64,000 nucleotides of DNA, taken from assembly GCA_037200965.1 (NCBI GenBank), contig JBBCGK010000001.1, forward strand, positions 704,001 through 768,000, written 5' to 3'. Position 1 is the stretch's first letter, and every line of letters begins with the position of its first letter. The notes beneath the pieces are model-generated. The model did not search any database. It saw only the letters and a list, made by a program, of their open reading frames with translations, and had not been told where the DNA came from. Shown here piece after piece: positions 8,029 through 63,000 of the stretch. Position numbers and translations under genes: made by a program. This stretch comes from a bacterium (GTDB taxonomy: Bacteria > Patescibacteriota > Minisyncoccia > Phycocordibacterales > Phycocordibacteraceae).

Positions 8029-8153
8029 CCCGCCGGTAGGGGTGGAAGAGAAGTCCGGAATTTCTGAGAAGTTTCTGCAGAAAGTTAGAACCCCCAATCT
8101 GTTAAGACGCGCCAACACGAATGGTTACTTAACTCGGCCTTTCGTGAAATGAT

Positions 8154-8566
8154 GTGGAGGTGGGGAGGTTGAACTCCCGTCCGACCTGCGCTTGAGAGCG
8201 AGTCTACGGCGCGTAGTTCCGATTAGGGTTTAAGAGAGGATGCGAGGAAACGGAACGAAACCATTCCCCTCCGATCCCGTTATCTAAGCCGCGGGCCGGG
8301 AGAGCCGCGAACCGATCGCACAGAAGATTCCGCCCGCTGGCCCGGCTGTGCGCACCCGGGACCAGGGACGTCGCTTAGGCGAGGTGAGCCGAAGCTCGAA
8401 CCTTATGCGTAAGCGAACGCGAAGTTCCCTGCGGTAAAGTAAGGAGACTTCACGCCTACAACAGTTTTGTTTGCAGGTAGAGTTTCCCGCCAGATTAAAG
8501 TGATGGGCGGGAGTGCACTGCGCCGCACGTCTCTCAAGGTACAGGCCGTCAAAGCCGGTCACCCCC
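8154..8566 (-). ncRNA. ssrA: tmRNA (ssrA), one-piece
   Basis: The minus-strand 5' end GGGGGUGACCGGCUUUGACGG matches the tmRNA 5' consensus (GGGGCUGAUUCUGGAUUCGACGG). The 3' end GGACGGGAGUUCAACCUCCCCACCUCCA is a tRNA-Ala-like T-arm plus acceptor. There is an internal ORF ending ...AGNFAFAYA-UAA. The gene sits adjacent to smpB. Confidence 0.7.
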
Positions 8567-51590: not shown

Positions 51591-51882
51591 AGCGGGGTAG
51601 AGGAGTGGTACCTCGGGAGGCTTGAATTATTCGGGCGTGCGCGCGAGCAATTGCGCGTAAGATCATCTGCCAAATTCGGTGAAACCCTCCTGCGCGAAAG
51701 CACAGACGGCAACGCCGAGCCAAGCCCTAAGAGCAATCGAAGGGAAGGTGTAGAGACTAGACGGTAGACATCCCGCAGGGGATGAAGGCATAGTCCAGAC
51801 CACAAATCATTCGTGCGAGAGCGGCGAAAGCCGTAGTGGTAGGCATAACCTCCAGACTCGGGTTCGAATCCCGACCCCGCAA
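51591..51882 (+). tRNA. tRNA(CAU) (Met/fMet/Ile2-type) interrupted by a ~221-nt group I intron in the anticodon loop
   Basis: 5' exon AGCGGGG-TA-GAGG-AGTGGTA-CCTC-G-GGAGG-CT (51591-51622). 3' exon CATAA-CCTCC-AGAC-TCGGG-TTCGAAT-CCCGA-CCCCGCA-A (51844-51882). The exons join to a normal cloverleaf with anticodon loop CUCAUAA. Confidence 0.65.
51623..51843 (+). ncRNA. group I intron (self-splicing ribozyme) within tRNA(CAU)
   Basis: The 5' exon ends in U and the intron ends in G. Core elements: P-like CAATTGCGCGTAAG; R-like GTGTAGAGACTAGAC (consensus GUUCAGAGACUA); S-like AAGGCATAGTCC (consensus AAGAUAUAGUCC). The P7 pairing is GACUA/UAGUC. Confidence 0.6.
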
Positions 51883-52640: not shown

Positions 52641-53482
52641 GGCATTCAGACTCAGTTGGCACAGCTCCCATACCATGGAAGCTATGTACACTCTCAAACA
52701 GATACCGAGCGAAGCGCAGATTCGGAAGTTCTTGCGCCGTACGCTCTTCGGCAAGAACGTGTTCTGTCCTTCGTGCCGGTCACGAAGGATCGAAAAGCAA
52801 CAGGAGCGGTATCGGTGCCGCACGTGCCGCATCCGCTTCTCCCTCACCTCGCACACCTGGCTCTCGAATCTGAAGCTCCCCCTCGAGCAGTGGTGGGTGC
52901 TGCTCTGGTGCTGGACCATACAAGAGCCGGTACGCCAAGCCGTCACGCTCTCTGGCCTTCCGGAACGCACGGTCAGGCGTTGGTATGCCACCTTCAGGCT
53001 CCATTTGCCCCAGGAAACCCATGTGCTCGAACGTATCGTCCAAATGGACGAAGCGTACTTCAAAAACGCCGCGCTCGTCATGGCCAAGCAGAAAGGTACG
53101 AGAAAGCTCGCCTTCGAGGTATTCCACGGCAGGTACCCAACCAAGACTGATGCCGTCTCATTCCTGTTCGAGCATGTGGCGCCGGGAAGCGAGCTCTGGA
53201 CCGATGGCGGGTCGATATACAAGAACATCAGCCAACGCTGGCCGGTGTCGCACCAGCGAGATATTCACTCCAAATTCGAGTTCGAGCACACCTCTGAGAT
53301 CGAGGGAATGTTCGGGGTATACCGCACCTTCGTGCGCAGGATGTATCATCATCACTGGAGCGAGAACTTGGAGGAATACGTGAGGGAATTCTGCTTCAGA
53401 TTTTCCTCGCCGGAAATCTTCAATTCGCCCCGTATTTACTTAACGAAATCACTCACGCTTGTGCCAACTTGTTCTTAATACC
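52641..53482 (+). mobile_element. IS1595-family insertion sequence (approximate ends)
   Basis: Imperfect terminal inverted repeats containing AGTTGGCACA / TGTGCCAACT. Flanked by the direct repeat CCGATGGTGG (52631-52640 and 53483-53492). Confidence 0.55.
52675..53478 (+). CDS. IS1595-family (ISXO2-like) transposase
   Basis: N-terminal Zn-ribbon CPSC...CRTC, then the DDE region (DEAYF... / ...ELWTDGGSIY...). Length 267 aa. Confidence 0.75.
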   Translation: MEAMYTLKQIPSEAQIRKFLRRTLFGKNVFCPSCRSRRIEKQQERYRCRTCRIRFSLTSHTWLSNLKLPLEQWWVLLWCWTIQEPVRQAVTLSGLPERTVRRWYATFRLHLPQETHVLERIVQMDEAYFKNAALVMAKQKGTRKLAFEVFHGRYPTKTDAVSFLFEHVAPGSELWTDGGSIYKNISQRWPVSHQRDIHSKFEFEHTSEIEGMFGVYRTFVRRMYHHHWSENLEEYVREFCFRFSSPEIFNSPRIYLTKSLTLVPTCS

Positions 53483-53830: not shown

Positions 53831-54289
53831 ATGAACGATTCCATGGGGATGATGGTCGGCGGCGCCATGATGCTGCCCTCCAAGAATATCGTCGAGAATG
53901 CGATGATGGCGAACAACGTCACGACGCTCGTCGCCGCCGTCAAAGCGGCGGGGCTCGCCGAGACGCTTTCCGGTGCCGGGCCCTTTACCGTCTTTGCTCC
54001 CACAAACGATGCGTTCGCGAAACTGCCCGCGGGTACCGTCGAAACGCTGCTCATGCCGGAAAACAAGGAACGGCTGGTTGGCATTCTAACGTACCATGTC
54101 GTGCCGGGCTCCTGGATGGCGGGCTCCCTTGCCGAAGGGGAACAGAAAGTCAAAACGGTGAACGGCAAGGAGCTCACGATCACCAAAAAGGGCGGGACAG
54201 TGTGGGTAAACGAAGCGATGGTAGAGATGGCGGACATCGTTTCTTCAAACGGCGTTACCCACCTTATCGACACGGTTCTGATGCCGTAA
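53831..54289 (+). CDS. fasciclin (FAS1) domain protein
   Basis: FAS1 motifs TVFAPTNDAFAKL and YHVVPG. Length 152 aa. Confidence 0.8.
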   Translation: MNDSMGMMVGGAMMLPSKNIVENAMMANNVTTLVAAVKAAGLAETLSGAGPFTVFAPTNDAFAKLPAGTVETLLMPENKERLVGILTYHVVPGSWMAGSLAEGEQKVKTVNGKELTITKKGGTVWVNEAMVEMADIVSSNGVTHLIDTVLMP

Positions 54290-54433: not shown

Positions 54434-56401
54434 TTACTTTCGATCAGGGAACCGTATCCGCATTCTCGTGCCTTCGCCGAGCTCGCTTTCGACGGCGATC
54501 GATCCGCCCTGCTGTTCGATGATGCGCTTCGCGAACGCGAGACCGAGGCCGGTGCCTCGCGCGTCATAGGGTGTGTTCTTGCCGCGGTAAAAGCGCTCGA
54601 AAACGCGTTCCCGGTCCTCCGGCAGGATGCCGATGCCCGTATCGGATATGGAGAGCTCGGTTCCGCCGTCTGCCCGCGCGAGCGCGATCCGTATTTCTTT
54701 ACGGCCTTCGGCGCGCATGTACTTGACCGCGTTGCTCGCGATGTTCATGACCGCCTCGCGCAGCCGTTTTGCGTTTCCGCGGACGACGATGCCGGGCTCG
54801 ATGGCGCTCGTGACCTCTATGCCGCGCGGCGCGGCGATGATAACGAGTTCCTCCGCGATCTCCGCGCACAACTGCGTAAGCGGGACGTCTTCCGTCCCCT
54901 CGCTTGCGGCCTGGTCGAGGTTCGCGAGCGACAGGAGGTCGTAGATGAAGTTCGAGAGCGCCGAGAGCGACTGCTCGAAGCCCGCAACCTCGCCGTCGTT
55001 CACGAGAATGCGCTTCAGCCGTTCGATCTTGGTCTGGAAAATGGCGAGCGGGGTCTGGAGATTATGGGAAATATCGTTAAGCATCTGCCGCTGGCTTTCC
55101 TGCGCCCGGCGCAGTTCCTCGGTACGCTCCGCGACTTTTTGCTCGAGCTCTTCGGCATGCCGCTTGACCTGCTCGTACAGGCGGGCGCGCGAAAGCGCGG
55201 TCGCGGCCTGGTACGCGAACGTGGCGAGCAGTTTGGCGTCCTCGCTCGTGTACGCGTCTCCCGATCGTTTCTCGCCGATGCGTATGGCGCCGACGGTCGC
55301 GCCTTCGAACGCTATCGGCACGTACATCGTTCTTCCGCTCGGGTCTTCTTCATCCGCGTCCGAATCGGGAACGGAGATGCGGACGGACGATGCGCGGAAG
55401 ATGGTAATAAGCGCGGCCTCGGCCCTGGCGGTGAGTTCGCCGAAGTCGACGCTCGTGTAGAGCACCTCGCTCAGGTTCCGGAGCGCCTCGGCATAGTCGT
55501 AGGTGTCCTTGAAGAAAATCCTGTCGGTCATCCTGCGGAAGCAGCGCTCAATGAGGGGAGCGCTGAAGATGCCGACCGCGGCCGTGACGGTGCCGCCAAG
55601 GAATGCGGCGGTACCCGACTGCGCCCCGAGCGAGCCGAATGCGGTGATGGCCACGAGATAGAACCCGGTGATAAGACCGAGAAGCGCGCTGTAGATAAGA
55701 CCGCGCTGGATGACGACGCGGATATCCATGAGCTGATGCCGGACGATGGCGTAGGCCGTAAGGGCGACGAACGCGATCGAGGAGGCCGGTCCAAGCAGGT
55801 TGAGCTGGTACATGCCGAGATACGGGAAAATGAGATCGAACACGATGAAGCTTCCGGCAAAAATGAATATGCCGACCGCGAGGTAGAGGATCTGCATCCG
55901 CTGCTTCCCGCGCGCAACGGAGAGATTCCGGCTCAAAAACCACAGCGTCGCGGACACGTGTCCGATATTGGCGAGCGCGTAGACGGGAAAGAGGGGCCCG
56001 AGAATCGCGTGGATGATACCGTTTTCGTCGACGACGATGCCGAGTATGTAGAGGCCGAACGGCAGAAGGAGCGCCGTACACGCAAGCGGAAGGAAGAACC
56101 AGGCGAATCGGAATGATACGGGTTCCCGGGAAGCGAAGGTCCGCGCGAAGAGCGTCATGCCAAAGAGCATCACGATCCCGCCGCCAAGCGCCATCTTGTC
56201 GAACGCGAAGTTGTGCGTGACATAGAGAAGCGAAATACCGGACATCCAGAGCGCCGTGCCAAGCACGAACGCGAAGAAGGACATGTTCACGACGTTTTTC
56301 GGGTTCTTGGAGAGCACGAGCGCGCCGATAGAGAGATTGACCGCGGCGATGGCGAACAGGATCGCCTGTTCAAGACCGAGCGTAATCACGGGCAGATGCA
56401 T
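54434..56401 (-). CDS. sensor histidine kinase with large multi-TM N-terminal sensor domain
   Basis: About 8 TM helices, H-box ISHNLQTPL, N/G boxes (ASNAVKY, GTGLGLAF). The start was moved to the internal ATG 56401, behind an AT-rich promoter-like stretch. Confidence 0.8.
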   Translation of the reverse strand: MHLPVITLGLEQAILFAIAAVNLSIGALVLSKNPKNVVNMSFFAFVLGTALWMSGISLLYVTHNFAFDKMALGGGIVMLFGMTLFARTFASREPVSFRFAWFFLPLACTALLLPFGLYILGIVVDENGIIHAILGPLFPVYALANIGHVSATLWFLSRNLSVARGKQRMQILYLAVGIFIFAGSFIVFDLIFPYLGMYQLNLLGPASSIAFVALTAYAIVRHQLMDIRVVIQRGLIYSALLGLITGFYLVAITAFGSLGAQSGTAAFLGGTVTAAVGIFSAPLIERCFRRMTDRIFFKDTYDYAEALRNLSEVLYTSVDFGELTARAEAALITIFRASSVRISVPDSDADEEDPSGRTMYVPIAFEGATVGAIRIGEKRSGDAYTSEDAKLLATFAYQAATALSRARLYEQVKRHAEELEQKVAERTEELRRAQESQRQMLNDISHNLQTPLAIFQTKIERLKRILVNDGEVAGFEQSLSALSNFIYDLLSLANLDQAASEGTEDVPLTQLCAEIAEELVIIAAPRGIEVTSAIEPGIVVRGNAKRLREAVMNIASNAVKYMRAEGRKEIRIALARADGGTELSISDTGIGILPEDRERVFERFYRGKNTPYDARGTGLGLAFAKRIIEQQGGSIAVESELGEGTRMRIRFPDRK

Positions 56402-56479
56402 ATGGTTCTTATATATTCGCACGCTTTGAGGCAAAAAAATGCGCCCCGGGAATCTCCGTGGGCGCAAGTACGCATGTGG

Positions 56480-57034
56480 TTATTCCCCGAACGCCTGCCG
56501 GAGTTCCATGAGATAGAGCGTCGGCACGGGAGGCTCGGTGAAGTAGAGCATCCCCGCTTCGCCGACCATGGCAAGCACTTCGTCCGCGCGGAGCCGGGCA
56601 TTCCCGATTTCCCGGCAGACGATGCCAAGTTCGCCAAGACGCTTGACGCTGTACGGCTTCGCTTCGATGAGCATGTGCCGCTTGCCAAGCTCGTACGCGA
56701 CGCGCATGGCCGTACGGACCAGGAGATTCGATACTCCCGGCGCCGTCGCGATCCATCTCGTCCCCTGCACGATGTACGGACGGTCGAAGGGATACGGCGC
56801 GTCCTTCGGATCGAATGCGTAACGGCCTTCGATAGGGAAGGGAGAAGCGTCGGCCATTCCTTCAAGCACGATACTTCCGACGATCGCGCCCTTGGCGCGG
56901 GCAATGAAGATAAGCCCGCGCGTCGGGGGAGGCTCGCATTTAAAGCGCTCGCGCATCACCGGCTCGATATAGCCGATCGCTTCGAGGCGCTCCGTTTCGG
57001 AAAGGGCGAGGGAGACTTCAGCGCCGGACTGCAC
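56480..57034 (-). CDS. hypothetical protein (possible GNAT-fold acyltransferase)
   Basis: 184 aa. Overlaps the upstream E1-like gene by 17 nt, so it is probably co-transcribed. The fold assignment is weak. Confidence 0.4.
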   Translation of the reverse strand: MQSGAEVSLALSETERLEAIGYIEPVMRERFKCEPPPTRGLIFIARAKGAIVGSIVLEGMADASPFPIEGRYAFDPKDAPYPFDRPYIVQGTRWIATAPGVSNLLVRTAMRVAYELGKRHMLIEAKPYSVKRLGELGIVCREIGNARLRADEVLAMVGEAGMLYFTEPPVPTLYLMELRQAFGE

Positions 57035-58058
57035 GGGGCACCCACCCTTCCGAGACGACCTTCGCCTGCATGGTTGCGGCGTCGAACTGCATATATCCGG
57101 CCATCGGAGGTACGTGCGCGATGTTGCGCCTGACGCCCGAATTCCGGAGCAAATGCAGGAGGACGCGGTTCGCGAGAAAACCCGCCGCCATTATCGGATT
57201 CGTAGCGATGATCGGCGCTTTCCCTTCCTCGAAGATCCGGCGGTAGAAGGCCGCGGCGTTCGCTTCCGCTGTCTCCGGGCTGTATTCCGGAAGATCCGGA
57301 ACCACCGCTCCGAGAATCGCTTCCGCGATCATGCGCCCCGCCTCCGTATCGCCCGCGCCAGCGCTCGCGCGCAGCCGCTTCGCTTCTTCGTAGCCGAATC
57401 CGACCGCTTCTTCCATCGTCATGCTCTGCGGCGTGTAGAGGAAGAGGTTAGTGCAGAATCCGACCGTGTTGCAGTTGAAGAGCGGTACACCCTCCGCCCT
57501 TCCCCGCTCATGGAGCAGGATGCGCGCGTCAAGCGTGAGGAGCTCGATCTCGTCGAGCACCACGTCGCAGCCCGCAAGGAAGTGATCGACGGTCGTCTCG
57601 TCGATTCCCTGCGGATAGACGACGACCGTCGTGTCGTCGGTGACTTCGCGCGCATCGCGCGCGGTCGTGAGCGCCTTCGACATGCCGACCGTCCGGCGCT
57701 TCGCGCCGAACTGCCGGTTGATATTCGAGACATCGAACGTCTCGCAATCGGCCGTACGCACTTCGCCGACGCCCGCCCGCAGGAAGGCTGGCAGAAGCAG
57801 CCCTCCCATCCCCCCGCAGCCGGCGATGCCGACGACGGCGTCCTGGAGCATGGCCTGCTCGTTTCTCGTGATCCAACCCCAGTTCCGGTCGGTGCGGTTG
57901 CGGTAGTACTCTTCGTCTGCGTCTTTCGGAAGCAGCCGAAGCACGCTTGCTTGCGGCAGATCTTCCGGGATGTCCATCCCCTCGATAACCGTAAGCGAAT
58001 TGTGTTGCCCAGACATCAGATAGCTCCTTAGGTTTGCGATACGGCCCTGACAGAACAA
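57018..58058 (-). CDS. ThiF/MoeB/E1-like adenylyltransferase with ~75-aa N-terminal extension (MccB-like architecture)
   Basis: Rossmann motif VVGIAGCGGMGG and a downstream D-x-x-NINRQ motif. An AAGGAG ribosome-binding site lies 7 nt before the second ATG (58016), so the true start may be there. Confidence 0.7.
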   Translation of the reverse strand: MFCQGRIANLRSYLMSGQHNSLTVIEGMDIPEDLPQASVLRLLPKDADEEYYRNRTDRNWGWITRNEQAMLQDAVVGIAGCGGMGGLLLPAFLRAGVGEVRTADCETFDVSNINRQFGAKRRTVGMSKALTTARDAREVTDDTTVVVYPQGIDETTVDHFLAGCDVVLDEIELLTLDARILLHERGRAEGVPLFNCNTVGFCTNLFLYTPQSMTMEEAVGFGYEEAKRLRASAGAGDTEAGRMIAEAILGAVVPDLPEYSPETAEANAAAFYRRIFEEGKAPIIATNPIMAAGFLANRVLLHLLRNSGVRRNIAHVPPMAGYMQFDAATMQAKVVSEGWVPRAVRR

Positions 58059-58154
58059 GACCGCTCCCGATCATAGGAAGCGCGCGCTTCACGCCCGTTC
58101 AAGCGCCGCTCACGTTCCGCTTCGCTTGAAGTGAACGGTGGATGATTCGTGCAT

Positions 58155-58185
58155 AAAAATGCGTCCCGCCGAAGCGGGACGCAAA
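58155..58185 (-). terminator. rho-independent terminator after the methyltransferase gene (GCGTCCCGC-TTCG-GCGGGACGC + ATTTTTAT)
   Basis: 9-bp GC stem with a T-run on the minus strand, directly after the stop at 58201. Confidence 0.6.
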
Positions 58186-58200
58186 GAAGGGCGTATGCGG

Positions 58201-58896
58201 TCATTTCGTTCCGGTAACGATAAGCGCATACGGCTGGACGCTTGCCATCCGCAGAATCGCGACTTCGTCCTCGTCGCGTGCGGTTTCGAGCAGGCTGGTG
58301 AGCGCGCTTCGCGGCGCGGTTACGGGAAGAGCGCGTGCGTTTAAGAAGCCGCATGCGCCGAAGAGTTTTTCAAGACTCTCTTTCGGACGCGGGTAAAGCC
58401 GAAACGCTTCCCCGAGCGTCGAGAACGTTAGCCCGCCCGGCACTTCGTTCAAAGCGAAGAAGCATGCGGCAAGGACCGTACCTCCGGGGCGTAGCACGCG
58501 CCACTGCTCCGCAACCGCGGCTCCTTGTTCCTCGTACGGCAGGTAGTTGAGCGAATGGAAAGAAACCGCCGCATCGAAGGACTGGTCGGCATAGGGAAGC
58601 GCGAGCATCGAACCTTCCATAAGCGGGAGCCCGCGCGCCGTTCCGCGCGCGATGAAGCTTGGCGAGAGGTCGATGCCGCGGCAGATGGCCCCCGTTTTTT
58701 CGAGCGCCTCGACGAGACCGCCCGAACCGCAGCCGACATCGAGCAACGTTTTTCCGGCAAGCGAACCGAGCCGTTCCGTAAGCATGGCCGCGATATCCGG
58801 ATACGCGATCCTGTCCTTGAACGCCGCGGTCTGCCGGTCGTAGCGTTCTCCCGCGCGCTCGTAGGCATCAAGCGCGTCTTGTTCATATGCACGCAT
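58201..58896 (-). CDS. class I SAM-dependent methyltransferase
   Basis: Motif I LLDVGCGSGGL and post-I acidic residue GIDLS. Length 231 aa. Confidence 0.8.
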   Translation of the reverse strand: MRAYEQDALDAYERAGERYDRQTAAFKDRIAYPDIAAMLTERLGSLAGKTLLDVGCGSGGLVEALEKTGAICRGIDLSPSFIARGTARGLPLMEGSMLALPYADQSFDAAVSFHSLNYLPYEEQGAAVAEQWRVLRPGGTVLAACFFALNEVPGGLTFSTLGEAFRLYPRPKESLEKLFGACGFLNARALPVTAPRSALTSLLETARDEDEVAILRMASVQPYALIVTGTK

Positions 58897-59007
58897 CGCA
58901 CATCACTCCTCAGGTTTGGATGGTGAACAATCTGCTCCAAGCCTATGCAGTGCGGCATGAAGAAAACGTGCGCTTCGAATGAGGCGTGCGTAAAGTTCCG
59001 TTCAATA

Positions 59008-59679
59008 TCAGCGCGCTTCGATCTTGTAGCCTCTGCCGGGCACGGTGCGGATGAGCCGGTCCTTTCCGGTGTCGCCGATTTTCTTCCGGAGGCTCAGGAT
59101 GTGCGATTCGATGGTGTTCGAGAAGATGTCGATATTCATGTCCCAGACATGCTCGAGGATCATGCCGCGGGAGAGCACGATGCCTTCGTTTTTCATGAGG
59201 TATTCGAGCAGCATAAACTCCTTGCGCGTGAGGGTGATCGATTTCTTCCCGCGCGTCACCGTGCAGCCCTTGGTGTCGAGCGTCAGGTCTTCCACCCTGA
59301 GGACTTCCTTTTCGATGGCCGCCGGACGCCGCAGAAGCGCGCGGATACGGGCTAGAAGTTCCTCGAGCGCGAAAGGCTTTGCGAGATAATCGTCCGCCCC
59401 GGCATTCAGAAGGGCGATTTTCCGGGTCGTGTCGGTTTTGACCGAGACCACGAGTATCGGCATGGTCTTGCCGCTCGCGCGTATCTCGGTGCATACCTGG
59501 AGCCCTTCCTTCTTCGGCAGCATGTTGTCGAGCACGACGAGATCGTAGTCGTTTATCCGGCCGAGATACGAACCTTTCTCGCCGTCTTCGGCGATGTCGA
59601 CCGCGAAATACTCGGACTCGAGCGAGTCCTTGAGAAAGCGGGCTATTTTCGGTTCATCTTCGACAACGAGTATTCTCAT
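59008..59679 (-). CDS. OmpR-family two-component response regulator
   Basis: Receiver (MRILVVEDE...DLVVLDNMLP) plus a C-terminal winged-helix trans_reg_C (LTRKEFMLLEYL...GYKI). Confidence 0.9.
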   Translation of the reverse strand: MRILVVEDEPKIARFLKDSLESEYFAVDIAEDGEKGSYLGRINDYDLVVLDNMLPKKEGLQVCTEIRASGKTMPILVVSVKTDTTRKIALLNAGADDYLAKPFALEELLARIRALLRRPAAIEKEVLRVEDLTLDTKGCTVTRGKKSITLTRKEFMLLEYLMKNEGIVLSRGMILEHVWDMNIDIFSNTIESHILSLRKKIGDTGKDRLIRTVPGRGYKIEAR

Positions 59680-60025: not shown

Positions 60026-63000
60026 ATGCTCTTCCTCCTTGTACGCACACTCATAAGACCGCATACGTCCCTTCGCGCCTTTCCTTCCTTGGCAGGGAAG
60101 GGCTTCCTGTTCTTGTTCGTGCTTTGGTCCTGTTCGATAAGCGCGCTGCCTGCATACGCGGCATGGGACGGACAGCCCTATGCGCCGGGCGCAACGCTTG
60201 ACCCGGAGTGCGGGCCGAGCGACTCTAATTGCAAGACGCTTGCGAGCGCGGACGCGACGACGCTTGAAGGCAGGTCCGGAAGCTATTACCTTGCCAACTC
60301 CTTCTCGACGACCTCGGCCGCGTATTTCCTTTCTGACAATCCGGGGCTCTCGTTCGCGACCACCAGTTCTGACTATTGGCTCGCGCATCGGTCCACGTCC
60401 GACCTTCCGGAAGGCTCGCGCCTCTACTACACCGATGCCCGCGCGGACGCGCGCATTCTTGCGACAACTACTCTTGCGAATATCATCTCGCTTCCGGGCT
60501 TGTCTTTGTCCGCGTCGCAGCTTACTGGCTTCGGTATTCCTTTCTACAATTTCTTTCACGCGACGACGACCGATGCGCTCGCGGAAGGTTCCCTGCATCG
60601 CTACTACAGCGACGTGCTCGCCCGCGGAGCGCTTGGCGTATCTGCCGGGGCTCTCGCGTATGACAGCGGCACGGGAATCCTTTCGGTTGCGGGCGGATAT
60701 ACGATTCCTTTATCAGCGTCCACGACGGAGTGGGGCGAGGCATATGACAACCGCATCACGTCGGCCTCGGCGCCTCTCACGATCGCGAACCGCGAGATAA
60801 GCCTCGGCATTGTTGATGCGGGGCACGGCGGCACCGGCCTCGCCTCGTACAATCCGGGCGCACTTCTGTATGCCGATGCCGACGGAAACCTCACGACGCT
60901 TTCGCCCGGTTCTTCCGGTACCGTGCTTAAGATCGCGGGCGGCGTCCCGACCTGGGGCACGGATCTTTCAAGCGGCGGCGGGGGAGGAGCCGTAGCCTGG
61001 GCGACGACATCCGACAGCCTCGCGATCTATCCGATGGACAGCACGAACGTCGTCATCGTGGGCGCAAGCGCGACATCGTCGGCGACGAGCGTCTTTGAAG
61101 TGCACGGGAGGTCGTATTTCACGACCAATGTCGGCATCGGCACGACTTCTCCGCTCTCGGCGCTTTCCGTCGCGGGGAGCGGCTTCTTCACCGGCAACCT
61201 GACTTCGGCCAATATCACCGCCACCGGAACGCTTTCAGTCTCGGGTGCTGGCACGTCGACGTTTGCCGGGCCGTTCTTAGCAGGGAATCTTGCGGTCGCC
61301 GGACTTCCCGCGGGCCTTATAAAGGCCGGGGCGGGCGGGTATCTCCGGGGCGCCGTCGCGGGAACGGATTATTTCGATCCTGCCGCGTTCGGTTCAACTT
61401 TCTATTCTTTTTTTCACGCGACGACGACCGATGCGCTTGCCGAAGGTTCGGTGCATAAGTATTGGAGCGATACGCTCTTCGACAACCGCCTCTCCGCGAC
61501 CACGTCGCTTCCGGGCCTCTCTTCCATCGGTTCGTATACCGGGCTCATCGGCGCGAACAACGGTTCCATGTACCAAATCGCCACTTCGACCAACTTCGTG
61601 ACATCGATCGCGGCCGCATACCCGCTCTCCGTTTCCGGACCAGCCGGGGCGGTGACAATCTCGACCGCGCTCGCTACCACCACATTCCAGCACTCATACG
61701 GTTCCGCGCAGATCGGACAAATCATCCTTGCCACTTCAAGCGCGGCAACGAGTAACGGCATCACGGTGGGGCAGACCATCACGAACTCCGGCGGCGTCTT
61801 CACGTTCGCTCCGGCGGTATCCGTATCGAACATCCCCAATGCCGCCCTGCAGAATTCCGCCGTCACCGTCAACGGCACCCTGATCCCGCTTGGCGGCTCG
61901 GGTACTGTCGCCGCCGCTTCTTCCACGCTCCTTGGAGATAACAATACTTTCTCGGGCGGCAATACGTTTTTGAGCACCATCACCGGCTCCGTTTCTGGCA
62001 ATGCCGGCACCGTTACGAACGGCGTATACACGACTACTTTCGGCGGCCTTTTCGACAACCGCCTCTCCGCGACCACGTCGCTTCCGGGCCTTACGGCGGT
62101 TTCGTCCGGCCTCACGGGCGTCCTTAAGGCGGCGGCGGGCTCTCTCTCGGCGGCGGCACCGGGGATCGATTTCGAAAATCCGCTTTCGTTCCTCTATCCG
62201 CTCGCGCGCACCGCAAACAGCGTAAGCCTTGCCTTCGGGACGACAACTTCAAACACTTGGGGAGGAACCCAGACTTTCACCAACAACCCGATACTCGGCA
62301 CTCTCACCGGTCTCTTCTACGGAAACAACGGATCGCTTGCGGCGACGGCGACATCCTCCGTCACCAGCGGCACCGGCATCGGCTTTTCAGGCACGCCGGG
62401 AGCGCTTGTCGGCGGTACTCCGCTTACGATTACGAATACCGGCGTGACGTCGAATATTGCCGGGACCGGCATCAGCGTCTCGGGCGCGACCGGCGCCGTT
62501 ACGATAAGCGCGGCGAACGTGCCGAACAGCGCGCTTGAGAACTCGACGATCGGGCTTGCTTCGGGCGACTCCTCCCTTACGGTTTCCGGCTCGCCCGCCT
62601 CTCTTGGAGGCTCGCTTTCCGCCTCCCTTAACACCGCGCATCCGAATACGTTCACCGCGCTTCAGCAATTCAGCGCAAATGCGTCGACGACGGGAATCTC
62701 TTCTTCGTATGCGTCCTCGACCAAAGCCTTCCTTGGAAGCCTGTCGATAGGGAATCTGACCGGCATCCTGCGCGCGGCCGGGGGTGCCGTATCGGCCTCG
62801 CTCGTGTCCCTCGCTTCCGACGTGACCGGAGTGCTCGGCGTTATAAACGGCGGGACGGGATGGGATTCGATACAGTCCGGCAGCATCCCGTACGGAAACG
62901 GCGCCGGGGCGCTCGCCACCACGAGCCCGGGAACCAACGGGCAGACGCTCGCGCTTGTCGCCGGAGTTCCGGCCTGGATCGCGACGACAACCGCGGGCAC

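Follow-up and report, generated by a model that had tools for sequence, protein, structure and literature searches.

N-acyl-oxazolone biosynthesis has been described for OxzA/OxzB of Pseudoalteromonas rubra (bioRxiv 10.1101/2020.06.11.147165) and, in Mycobacterium tuberculosis, for TyzA/TyzB/TyzC (PMC10404671) and TrzA/TrzS, encoded by Rv1356c/Rv1355c (PMC12856293). These systems share a core of an N-acyl amino acid synthase (NAS) with a FeeM/LuxI fold and a ThiF-like enzyme: the synthase N-acylates tyrosine, phenylalanine or tryptophan from acyl-CoA, the ThiF-like enzyme catalyzes an ATP-dependent cyclization, and a flavin oxidase of the nitroreductase superfamily desaturates the product (bioRxiv 10.1101/2020.06.11.147165; PMC10404671; PMC12856293). 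In TrzS, cyclization comes first, and a saturated cyclized intermediate accumulates when the oxidase is disabled; the ATP-dependent ThiF step is abolished by an Asp-to-Ala substitution in the adenylation motif, D217A (PMC12856293). The physiological role of oxazolones has been called a major unresolved question, with signaling raised as a possibility (PMC12856293), and the tyrazolones and tryptazolones of Mycobacterium and Rhodococcus are found mainly in the cell fraction and have been proposed to act in the membrane or under stress (PMC10404671; PMC12856293). Here, we describe a related gene cassette in a 64,000-nucleotide stretch of a patescibacterial genome (GenBank assembly GCA_037200965.1, contig JBBCGK010000001.1, positions 704,001 to 768,000; hereafter, the window). 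An E1-superfamily enzyme and a 184-aa protein encoded in this cassette form a coupled pair of a ThiF-type adenylating enzyme and a LuxI/FeeM-fold acyltransferase. They are most closely related to the NAS/ThiF pairs of acyl-amino-acid metabolite pathways and lie within a conserved two-component system whose kinase is polytopic. We lean, with modest confidence, toward reading the cassette as a signal synthase wired to its receptor, in which the N-acyl-amino-acid/ThiF enzyme pair and the kinase would make up an autoinducer-type unit.

All five minus-strand open reading frames (ORFs) that a preliminary description of this DNA had reported are present in the window (ORF listing, Pfam), and the cassette contains the following features:

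59008..59679, minus strand: response regulator of the OmpR/PhoB type, with a receiver and a winged-helix DNA-binding domain (Pfam Response_reg 1e-26, Trans_reg_C 2e-25).
58201..58896, minus strand: class I S-adenosylmethionine (SAM)-dependent methyltransferase, an accessory tailoring enzyme of the cassette (Methyltransf_11, E 2e-20).
58160..58183, minus strand: intrinsic-terminator-like hairpin and T-run, 3' of the methyltransferase gene (10-bp stem with 8 GC pairs, tail TTTTTAT).
57018..58016, minus strand: ThiF/E1-superfamily adenylating enzyme of 332 aa, the predicted ATP-dependent activator/cyclase of an N-acyl amino acid (PF00899, E 4e-27).
56480..57034, minus strand: 184-aa N-acyltransferase of the LuxI/FeeM fold, a predicted N-acyl amino acid synthase from an orphan family without a Pfam model.
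~56433..56466, minus strand: hairpin and U7 between the acyltransferase and kinase genes, a possible terminator or attenuator (RNA fold -24.2 kcal/mol, z -2.2 against shuffles).
54434..56401, minus strand: polytopic sensor histidine kinase with about 7-8 transmembrane (TM) segments and cytoplasmic GAF, HisKA and HATPase_c domains, the candidate receptor (Pfam, hydropathy).

Several details of this layout agree with what had been reported earlier, namely the methyltransferase gene's own terminator (the GC-rich stem and T-run at 58183-58160) and the 17-nt overlap (57018-57034) of the E1 stop by the gene for the 184-aa protein. The E1 start has been revised: it is almost certainly ATG 58016, not TTG 58058, because an AAGGAG box lies upstream, 7 nt before this ATG, and because the resulting protein matches a 332-aa NCBI model (P0006). 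The gap between the methyltransferase and E1 genes is therefore 184 nt, not 142 nt, and the extension ahead of the E1 core shrinks from the ~75 aa first proposed to ~30-35 aa. The 14-codon ORF noted in that gap does exist (MHESSTVHFKRSGT, 58154-58110); it begins in the T-tail of the methyltransferase terminator and has no conserved counterpart in other loci. The kinase ORF spans 54434-56467 at full length, and ATG 56401 is favored as its start because of the hairpin and U7 at ~56466-56433. A terminator consensus scan overlooked this hairpin, a miss that we attribute to its interrupted stem.

The E1-like enzyme retains the full set of adenylation residues. Across 31 family members, G66xG68G69xG71, D90, S97-N98-x-N100-R101-Q102, K114 and D155 are invariant, and the first conserved core motif of the family alignment is R41-x-D43-R44-N45. 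D155 corresponds to the adenylation-motif aspartate that is essential in TrzS (D217), an equivalence that we infer from the shared E1 motif rather than from an alignment to TrzS. The same family alignment contains no invariant cysteine and no zinc-binding CxxC pairs; C150 and C182 are conserved only at the level of at least 90%. A structural model (predicted local distance difference test, pLDDT, 94.1) displays a canonical E1 core, to which a two-stranded hairpin at the N-terminus and a helical insertion (~aa 200-265) are added. Only ~30 aa precede the first core helix, and they contain two short strands (9-13 and 24-28).

Family searches place this enzyme near acyltransferase-linked ThiF proteins. 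Among NCBIfam families, the window E1 scores 136 bits on PRK08223, 116 on PRK14851, 80 on PRK14852 and 75 on the Rv1355c (TrzS) family, followed by ThiF (66), MoeB (50) and TcdA (40); the ThiF, MoeB and SAMP-E1 scores are about half those of the acyltransferase-linked clade. A ThiF-nitroreductase fusion from a representative protein library (P0271) matches PRK14851 along its whole length with 749 bits and PRK08223 with 372 bits, which identifies these 'hypothetical' families as the ThiF-nitroreductase architecture. In BLAST comparisons, the window E1 reaches 97-132 bits with ThiF-nitroreductase, ThiF-methyltransferase, FeeM-ThiF and acyltransferase-adjacent ThiF proteins, but only 42-52 bits with E. 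coli ThiF, MoeB and TcdA. In a neighbor-joining tree, the E1 groups with the ThiF-nitroreductase, FeeM-ThiF and acyltransferase-adjacent ThiF proteins, apart from E. coli ThiF, MoeB and TcdA. This placement rests on NCBIfam families, BLAST and the tree rather than on the TyzB, OxzB and TrzS sequences themselves. Against PDB sequences, the E1 family profile scores 63 bits on TcdA, 60 on AclA, 58 on ThiF, 42 on PaaA and 40 on MccB, while Foldseek of the model ranks ThiF and MoeB best (E 2e-15, TM-score ~0.8 on target) and MccB ~31st. AclA of Tenacibaculum discolor (PDB 9egb, 9egc and 9egd; 60 bits) is a solved 265-aa ThiF-type protein recorded 'in complex with substrate' and may provide a structural template for small-molecule ThiF enzymes.

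The 184-aa protein has no Pfam match at E <= 0.01 and no NCBIfam match, and it is the fold that identifies it. Its model (pLDDT 95.8) adopts a GNAT-superfamily fold, as had been suspected, and fold comparison assigns it specifically to the LuxI/FeeM branch of acyl-amino-acid and acyl-homoserine lactone (AHL) synthases. AHL synthases are the top structural matches, and the N-acyl amino acid synthase FeeM (13.0) is also among them; these structural neighbors are those given for TyzA (PMC10404671). A word-indexed search recovered five relatives, and a profile search of a representative library of 1.84 billion proteins recovered many more. Because that profile kept the E1 columns of two fusion proteins, its matches mix E1 and acyltransferase families, and only matches at profile positions ~320-525 were used to deepen the acyltransferase alignment. 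The invariant motifs C-x-P-P-P and E-x-K-P are particular to the window family, whose members show only weak FeeM or T_hemolysin Pfam matches; its sequence profile returned nothing meaningful from the PDB, so that fold comparison alone was informative. Some homologous cassettes carry a second acyltransferase flavor at the same position, which matches Pfam Acetyltransf_5, Autoind_synth (PF00765) and FeeM. The two flavors are weakly linked by hhalign (E 0.004), with [QE]-G-[ST]-R-W aligned to an E-V-S-R-G block. PF00765 is not matched by the window protein, and only the sister-cassette flavor matches PF00765 or PF13444.

The two enzymes travel together, and they do so within a two-component system. 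A single scan of GTDB species representatives yielded 80 loci in which ORFs were called and searched with the window proteins and family profiles; the close E1 family accounts for 54 of them, and the counts below use loci with enough flanking sequence. Nearly all close homologs come from Patescibacteria. An acyltransferase lies downstream of the E1, or is fused to it, in 47 of 53 loci, and the pair, whose co-conservation the preliminary description had proposed to check, is thus strongly co-conserved. A homologous kinase follows downstream in 41 of 49 loci, the E1 gene is directly preceded by a homologous response regulator gene in 33 of 48, and the full order of regulator, E1, acyltransferase and kinase is retained in 31 of the 45 species-representative loci with enough sequence on both flanks. 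This order also holds in metagenomic contigs, whichever acyltransferase flavor is present, and E1::acyltransferase fusions occur with both flavors. Further fusions join FeeM to ThiF (P0249), acyltransferase to methyltransferase (P0206) and ThiF to methyltransferase (P0258, P0259). The arrangement is no chance juxtaposition, being shared by dozens of species, and the genes between regulator and kinase constitute one functional module embedded in a two-component system, as the preliminary description had proposed. Among distant ThiF loci from Firmicutes and other groups, an Acetyltransf_5-like gene lies directly upstream in 15 of 26, with no two-component system.

Two of the relatives outside Patescibacteria have neighborhoods worth recording. 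In Legionella norrlandica (L038, 4617-11224), a 43% identical E1 and a window-type acyltransferase are followed by an alpha/beta-hydrolase, a major facilitator superfamily (MFS) transporter and a MarR regulator, and genes for a heme-oxygenase-like iron enzyme and a cupin lie upstream in divergent orientation. This Legionella is cultured and tractable, and the product could be sought there. In Paenibacillus sp. J2TS4 (L067, 5071-7768), as in other Firmicutes loci (L062-L085), an Acetyltransf_5-like acyltransferase gene directly precedes the one encoding a 252-aa ThiF, and these loci showed no detectable nitroreductase. The Paenibacillus pair adjoins an HD_5 (HD-GYP-like) gene, an arrangement reminiscent of the c-di-GMP genes that neighbor trzAS in M. 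tuberculosis.

The methyltransferase is a recurrent, genuine accessory of the cassette, not a passenger. It adjoins the cassette in 4 of 54 close-family loci and lies between the regulator and E1 genes in two of the homologous loci (L017, L056), whose methyltransferases are 41-44% identical to that of the window. The methyltransferase half of the acyltransferase::methyltransferase fusion P0206 is 32% identical to the window enzyme over 251 aa (E 1e-37). The flanking regulator and kinase have the domains of an OmpR/PhoB-type two-component system, with a receiver and winged-helix domain in the former and HisKA and HATPase_c in the latter (Pfam, NCBIfam). Hydropathy places ~7-8 hydrophobic segments in the first 285 aa of the kinase, and its N-terminal 334 aa have no Pfam match. 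The first 300 aa are 41-51% identical to those of kinases at the same position in four homologous loci (L003, L004, L050, L056). PF16927 (HisKA_7TM) matches the kinases of L003, L004 and the P0100 contig, and the window kinase takes the HisKA_7TM label because these homologous kinases carry it.

The upstream regions add a regulatory element to this picture. OmpR/PhoB-type binding sites are expected to contain direct repeats phased at 11 bp. In the spacers between the regulator and E1 genes of relatives, 7-mer direct repeats at 11-bp spacing occur at 15.1 per kb, compared with 5.1 per kb in control spacers, and repeats at other spacings occur at 0.6-4.7 per kb. The most enriched words in these spacers are GTTTAG and TTTAGA, with k-mer P values that are uncorrected for multiple testing. 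The phased repeats upstream of the E1 in relatives hint that the regulator feeds back on synthase expression. In the window, the clearest 11-bp-phased direct repeat is GCATAAACGAG/GCGTAAACGCA (~59799-59778, read on the minus strand), which resembles, as TAAAC/GTTTA, the GTTTAG/TTTAGA repeats upstream of the relatives' E1 genes. It lies ~100-120 nt upstream of the regulator ATG, in a 346-nt spacer shared with a divergent giant ORF, which could be a target of the two-component system. This ORF (60026 to beyond 64000, plus strand) runs past the window end with more than 1,320 codons without a stop, is rich in S, T, G and A, and begins with a signal-peptide-like N-terminus. Internal repeats of this apparent surface protein include a 90-nt pair at 60530/61388 and a 44-nt pair at 61475/62048, and the short ORFs listed across the region are frame shadows.

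The cassette shares its enzymatic core with the oxazolone pathways but departs from them in several respects. As in OxzAB, TyzACB and TrzAS, a FeeM/LuxI-fold synthase adjoins a ThiF-superfamily enzyme, to which it is fused in relatives; the best family matches of the window E1 include the ThiF-nitroreductase and Rv1355c (TrzS) families, and, as in TrzS, the adenylation-motif aspartate is kept. Unlike all three, the window pair has no detectable flavin desaturase domain or gene, its E1 scores below the family cut-offs and carries the conserved ~30-aa N-terminal hairpin and the helical insertion, its acyltransferase belongs to a separate orphan family with the gene order E1 then acyltransferase, and it is embedded in a two-component system in a patescibacterial host. 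The planctomycete stieleriacine clusters combine an NAS, a methyltransferase, a ThiF and a nitroreductase (PMC12479983). Together with the thalassotalic acid and kyonggic acid clusters, they resemble the window in bringing an NAS, a class I methyltransferase and a ThiF-family protein into one locus (PMC12479983), but these clusters carry a nitroreductase and no two-component system, and the role of ThiF in them is itself unresolved. TcdA, the tRNA t6A cyclodehydratase, is the best sequence match of solved structure and a mechanistic parallel: it is a ThiF-type enzyme that adenylates the carboxylate of an N-acylated amino acid ahead of cyclization, with neither a ubiquitin-like protein (Ubl) nor a catalytic cysteine. 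Unlike the window E1, TcdA acts on a tRNA nucleoside, has no acyltransferase partner and belongs to a different clade. The cassette fits best among the NAS plus ThiF-cyclase pathways, as a variant that lacks the desaturase and is embedded in a two-component system.

In its wiring, the cassette recalls classical autoinducer circuits. In LuxM/LuxN, AinS/AinR, CqsA/CqsS and LqsA-LqsR-LqsS, the synthase gene adjoins a polytopic membrane kinase gene, as it does here, where the cognate regulator is added and the acyltransferase fold is that of LuxI. The window cassette differs from these systems in its obligatory ThiF-like partner and in a kinase sensor of the HisKA_7TM/GAF type. Bernard et al. (2020) listed 18 LuxI homologs of the candidate phyla radiation (CPR) located beside a sensory kinase as candidate quorum-sensing systems, with no mention of ThiF (PMC7567580). 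What they saw was probably the Autoind_synth-positive flavor of the present cassette.

We infer the substrates, the cyclized product, its sensing by the kinase and the feedback loop, and the route they would form is as follows. The 184-aa protein would N-acylate an amino acid from an acyl-thioester donor, and the ThiF-like enzyme would use ATP to adenylate the free carboxylate of the resulting N-acyl amino acid. The acyl-adenylate would then be resolved intramolecularly, as in TyzB, TrzS, OxzB and TcdA, giving a saturated 5(4H)-oxazolone or another cyclized or activated derivative. The product would stay saturated because no flavin desaturase was detected, and the adjacent methyltransferase might optionally tailor it. 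Because genes for an OmpR-type regulator and a 7TM/GAF kinase nearly always flank the synthase genes, the product would most likely be the cognate lipophilic signal of that kinase. The resulting synthase/receptor unit would be analogous in layout to LuxM/LuxN, CqsA/CqsS and LqsA/LqsS/LqsR, and the regulator may feed back on synthase expression through the 11-bp-phased repeats seen in relatives. A bolder version of this proposal is possible but more tentative. It posits a lineage-wide autoinducer of a new chemical class in Patescibacteria and a few Legionella- or Rickettsiales-like lineages, a ThiF-activated N-acyl-amino-acid derivative (an azlactone or related compound) that is sensed directly by the adjacent 7TM kinase and reinforced by positive feedback through the regulator.

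A number of observations weigh against the signaling proposal. On the side of the enzymes, the E1 falls under the curated cut-offs of PRK08223 (136 versus 266 bits) and PRK14851, so that by sequence it appears to be a sister clade of these families, not a member, and the acyltransferase family has no sequence-level match to any characterized enzyme in Pfam, NCBIfam, homolog and PDB profile searches. No flavin desaturase (nitroreductase/FDO) was found by tblastn, with no match below E = 7 in the 64-kb window and none at E <= 1e-3 in 85 loci, in a search with a single query (the FDO half of P0271) that a very divergent FDO, or one elsewhere in the genome, may escape; annotated metagenomic neighborhoods likewise contain no nitroreductase Pfam family. 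The known stable conjugated oxazolones cannot be the product, because no such desaturase was detected, and a saturated azlactone is prone to hydrolysis, an awkward property in a diffusible signal. To our knowledge, Patescibacteria are generally thought to lack fatty-acid synthesis, and the acyl donor is therefore hard to name. On the side of the wiring, part of the cassette is absent in 14 of 45 loci, the Legionella and gammaproteobacterial relatives are enzyme pairs without a two-component system, and terminator-like hairpins in this window split the locus into regulator-methyltransferase, E1-acyltransferase and kinase parts. The clearest 11-bp repeat of the window precedes the regulator gene rather than the E1 gene, and gene proximity alone cannot establish that the kinase detects the product.

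The leading rival to the signaling proposal is envelope-lipid remodeling, in which the N-acyl amino acid, or its cyclized form, stays in the membrane while the kinase and regulator sense the state of the envelope and control production. The same enzymology evidence serves both readings, the proposed membrane or stress role of the cell-associated tyrazolones and tryptazolones would suit this one (PMC10404671; PMC12856293), and the large polytopic domain of the kinase could sense bilayer properties. It is a serious rival, although we hold it to be the less likely reading: synthase genes that are flanked by a regulator and a polytopic kinase and preceded by phased repeats have the layout of an autoinducer circuit, and in the Legionella relative the enzymes are accompanied by an MFS exporter and a MarR regulator, suggesting a secreted product. 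Nothing firm discriminates between the two. A non-canonical AHL route, by contrast, would keep the signal but change its chemistry, with homoserine or a similar hydroxy-amino acid being N-acylated, its carboxylate adenylated by the ThiF-like enzyme, and the lactone closed by the side-chain hydroxyl without SAM. Such a route would accommodate AHL synthases as top structural matches, the Autoind_synth matches of sister-cassette domains and the reading of CPR LuxI homologs beside kinases as AHL systems by Bernard et al. (PMC7567580), and adenylation followed by intramolecular attack has precedents in TcdA, TyzB and TrzS. It is nonetheless improbable, as no ThiF-dependent lactonization is known, the window family lacks an Autoind_synth match and has its own invariant motifs (C-x-P-P-P and E-x-K-P), and the nearest characterized pathway logic runs from an NAS and a ThiF cyclase to an oxazolone.

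Two further explanations, both raised by the preliminary description, fare worse. The first likened the locus to a microcin-C-type pathway, in which a clamp-bearing, MccB-like E1 turns an Asn-ended ribosomal peptide into a peptidyl-nucleotide with the help of an MccD-like methyltransferase and an MccE-like GNAT. The E1, class I methyltransferase and GNAT superfamilies do stand side by side here, as in MccB/MccD/MccE, and MccB is among the significant E1 matches; at 40 bits, however, it is one of the weakest profile matches listed (TcdA 63, ThiF 58), and by fold it is only ~31st, making it a distant relative. The ~30-aa extension with its two short strands contrasts with the ~100-aa peptide-clamp domain of MccB, the GNAT is of the LuxI/FeeM type rather than the MccE subfamily, and the cassette has no exporter or immunity gene. 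No MccA-like precursor is evident either: the 14-codon ORF overlaps the terminator tail, and an all-against-all screen of 10-90-codon ORFs outside known genes, covering 54 loci and the window, found no conserved family in the intergenic parts, yielding only alternative-frame shadows of neighboring genes and low-complexity clusters. We regard this analogy as highly improbable, and no more credible is a Ubl-conjugation or sulfur-carrier activation module of the ThiF/MoeB/Uba type. The conserved ATP-binding residues and the rank of ThiF and MoeB as best Foldseek matches (E 2e-15, TM-score ~0.8 on target) would suit such a module, but the constant partner of the E1 is an acyltransferase, its family has neither an invariant cysteine nor CxxC zinc motifs, and the ThiF, MoeB and SAMP-E1 families of NCBIfam reach about half the score of the acyltransferase-linked clade. 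No ThiS/MoaD/Ubl, JAB peptidase, E2 or rhodanese gene was found in annotated metagenomic neighborhoods, the 54 loci being screened for small ORFs only, and no Ubl gene adjoins the window E1. As outcomes that would tell against its ideas, the preliminary description had named in advance an E1 that clusters with the housekeeping MoeB/ThiF/TcdA clades and has no clamp-like N-terminal fold, and homolog neighborhoods with neither a precursor peptide nor a Ubl gene. The E1 lies outside those clades (NCBIfam, neighbor-joining tree) and groups with ThiF-type proteins linked to N-acyl-amino-acid/oxazolone pathways, which the preliminary description had left out of account. Its N-terminus has no clamp-like fold, and the small-ORF screen of the 54 loci gave no conserved precursor peptide or candidate Ubl carrier, so that the second of these outcomes refutes both specific interpretations.

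The remaining window contains several features away from the cassette. An IS1595-family transposase gene (52675-53478, plus strand; DDE_Tnp_IS1595 and a zinc ribbon) lies ~1 kb beyond the kinase gene and is adjoined by a fasciclin-domain gene (53831-54289). An Rfam group I intron match (51614-51815, plus strand; 58.8 bits, above the gathering score) coincides with a lower-GC patch, where ARAGORN finds no tRNA and there is no obvious host gene. A tmRNA gene is located at 8152-8566 on the minus strand (Rfam 95 bits), with the ARAGORN-proposed tag peptide GPAGGIFCAIGSRLSRPAA.

For annotation, members of the 184-aa family, at present each a 'hypothetical protein' lacking a Pfam model, can be named LuxI/FeeM-fold acyltransferases, and annotation of the E1 as a molybdopterin or thiamine enzyme is to be avoided. 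Signaling by N-acyl-oxazolones has so far been suggested only from their structural resemblance to AHLs, and a concrete synthase/receptor pair, present in dozens of species, makes the role of N-acyl-oxazolones and other NAS-ThiF products testable. Without a desaturase, the pathway should yield either a saturated, reactive azlactone or some other cyclized or activated product. Patescibacteria are reduced-genome organisms that live on other cells, and the cassette would bear on how they sense kin or host. If the signaling proposal is true, it would provide the first physiological role for the oxazolone/NAS-ThiF metabolite class and the first dedicated cell-cell or cell-host signaling circuit for ultrasmall epibionts.

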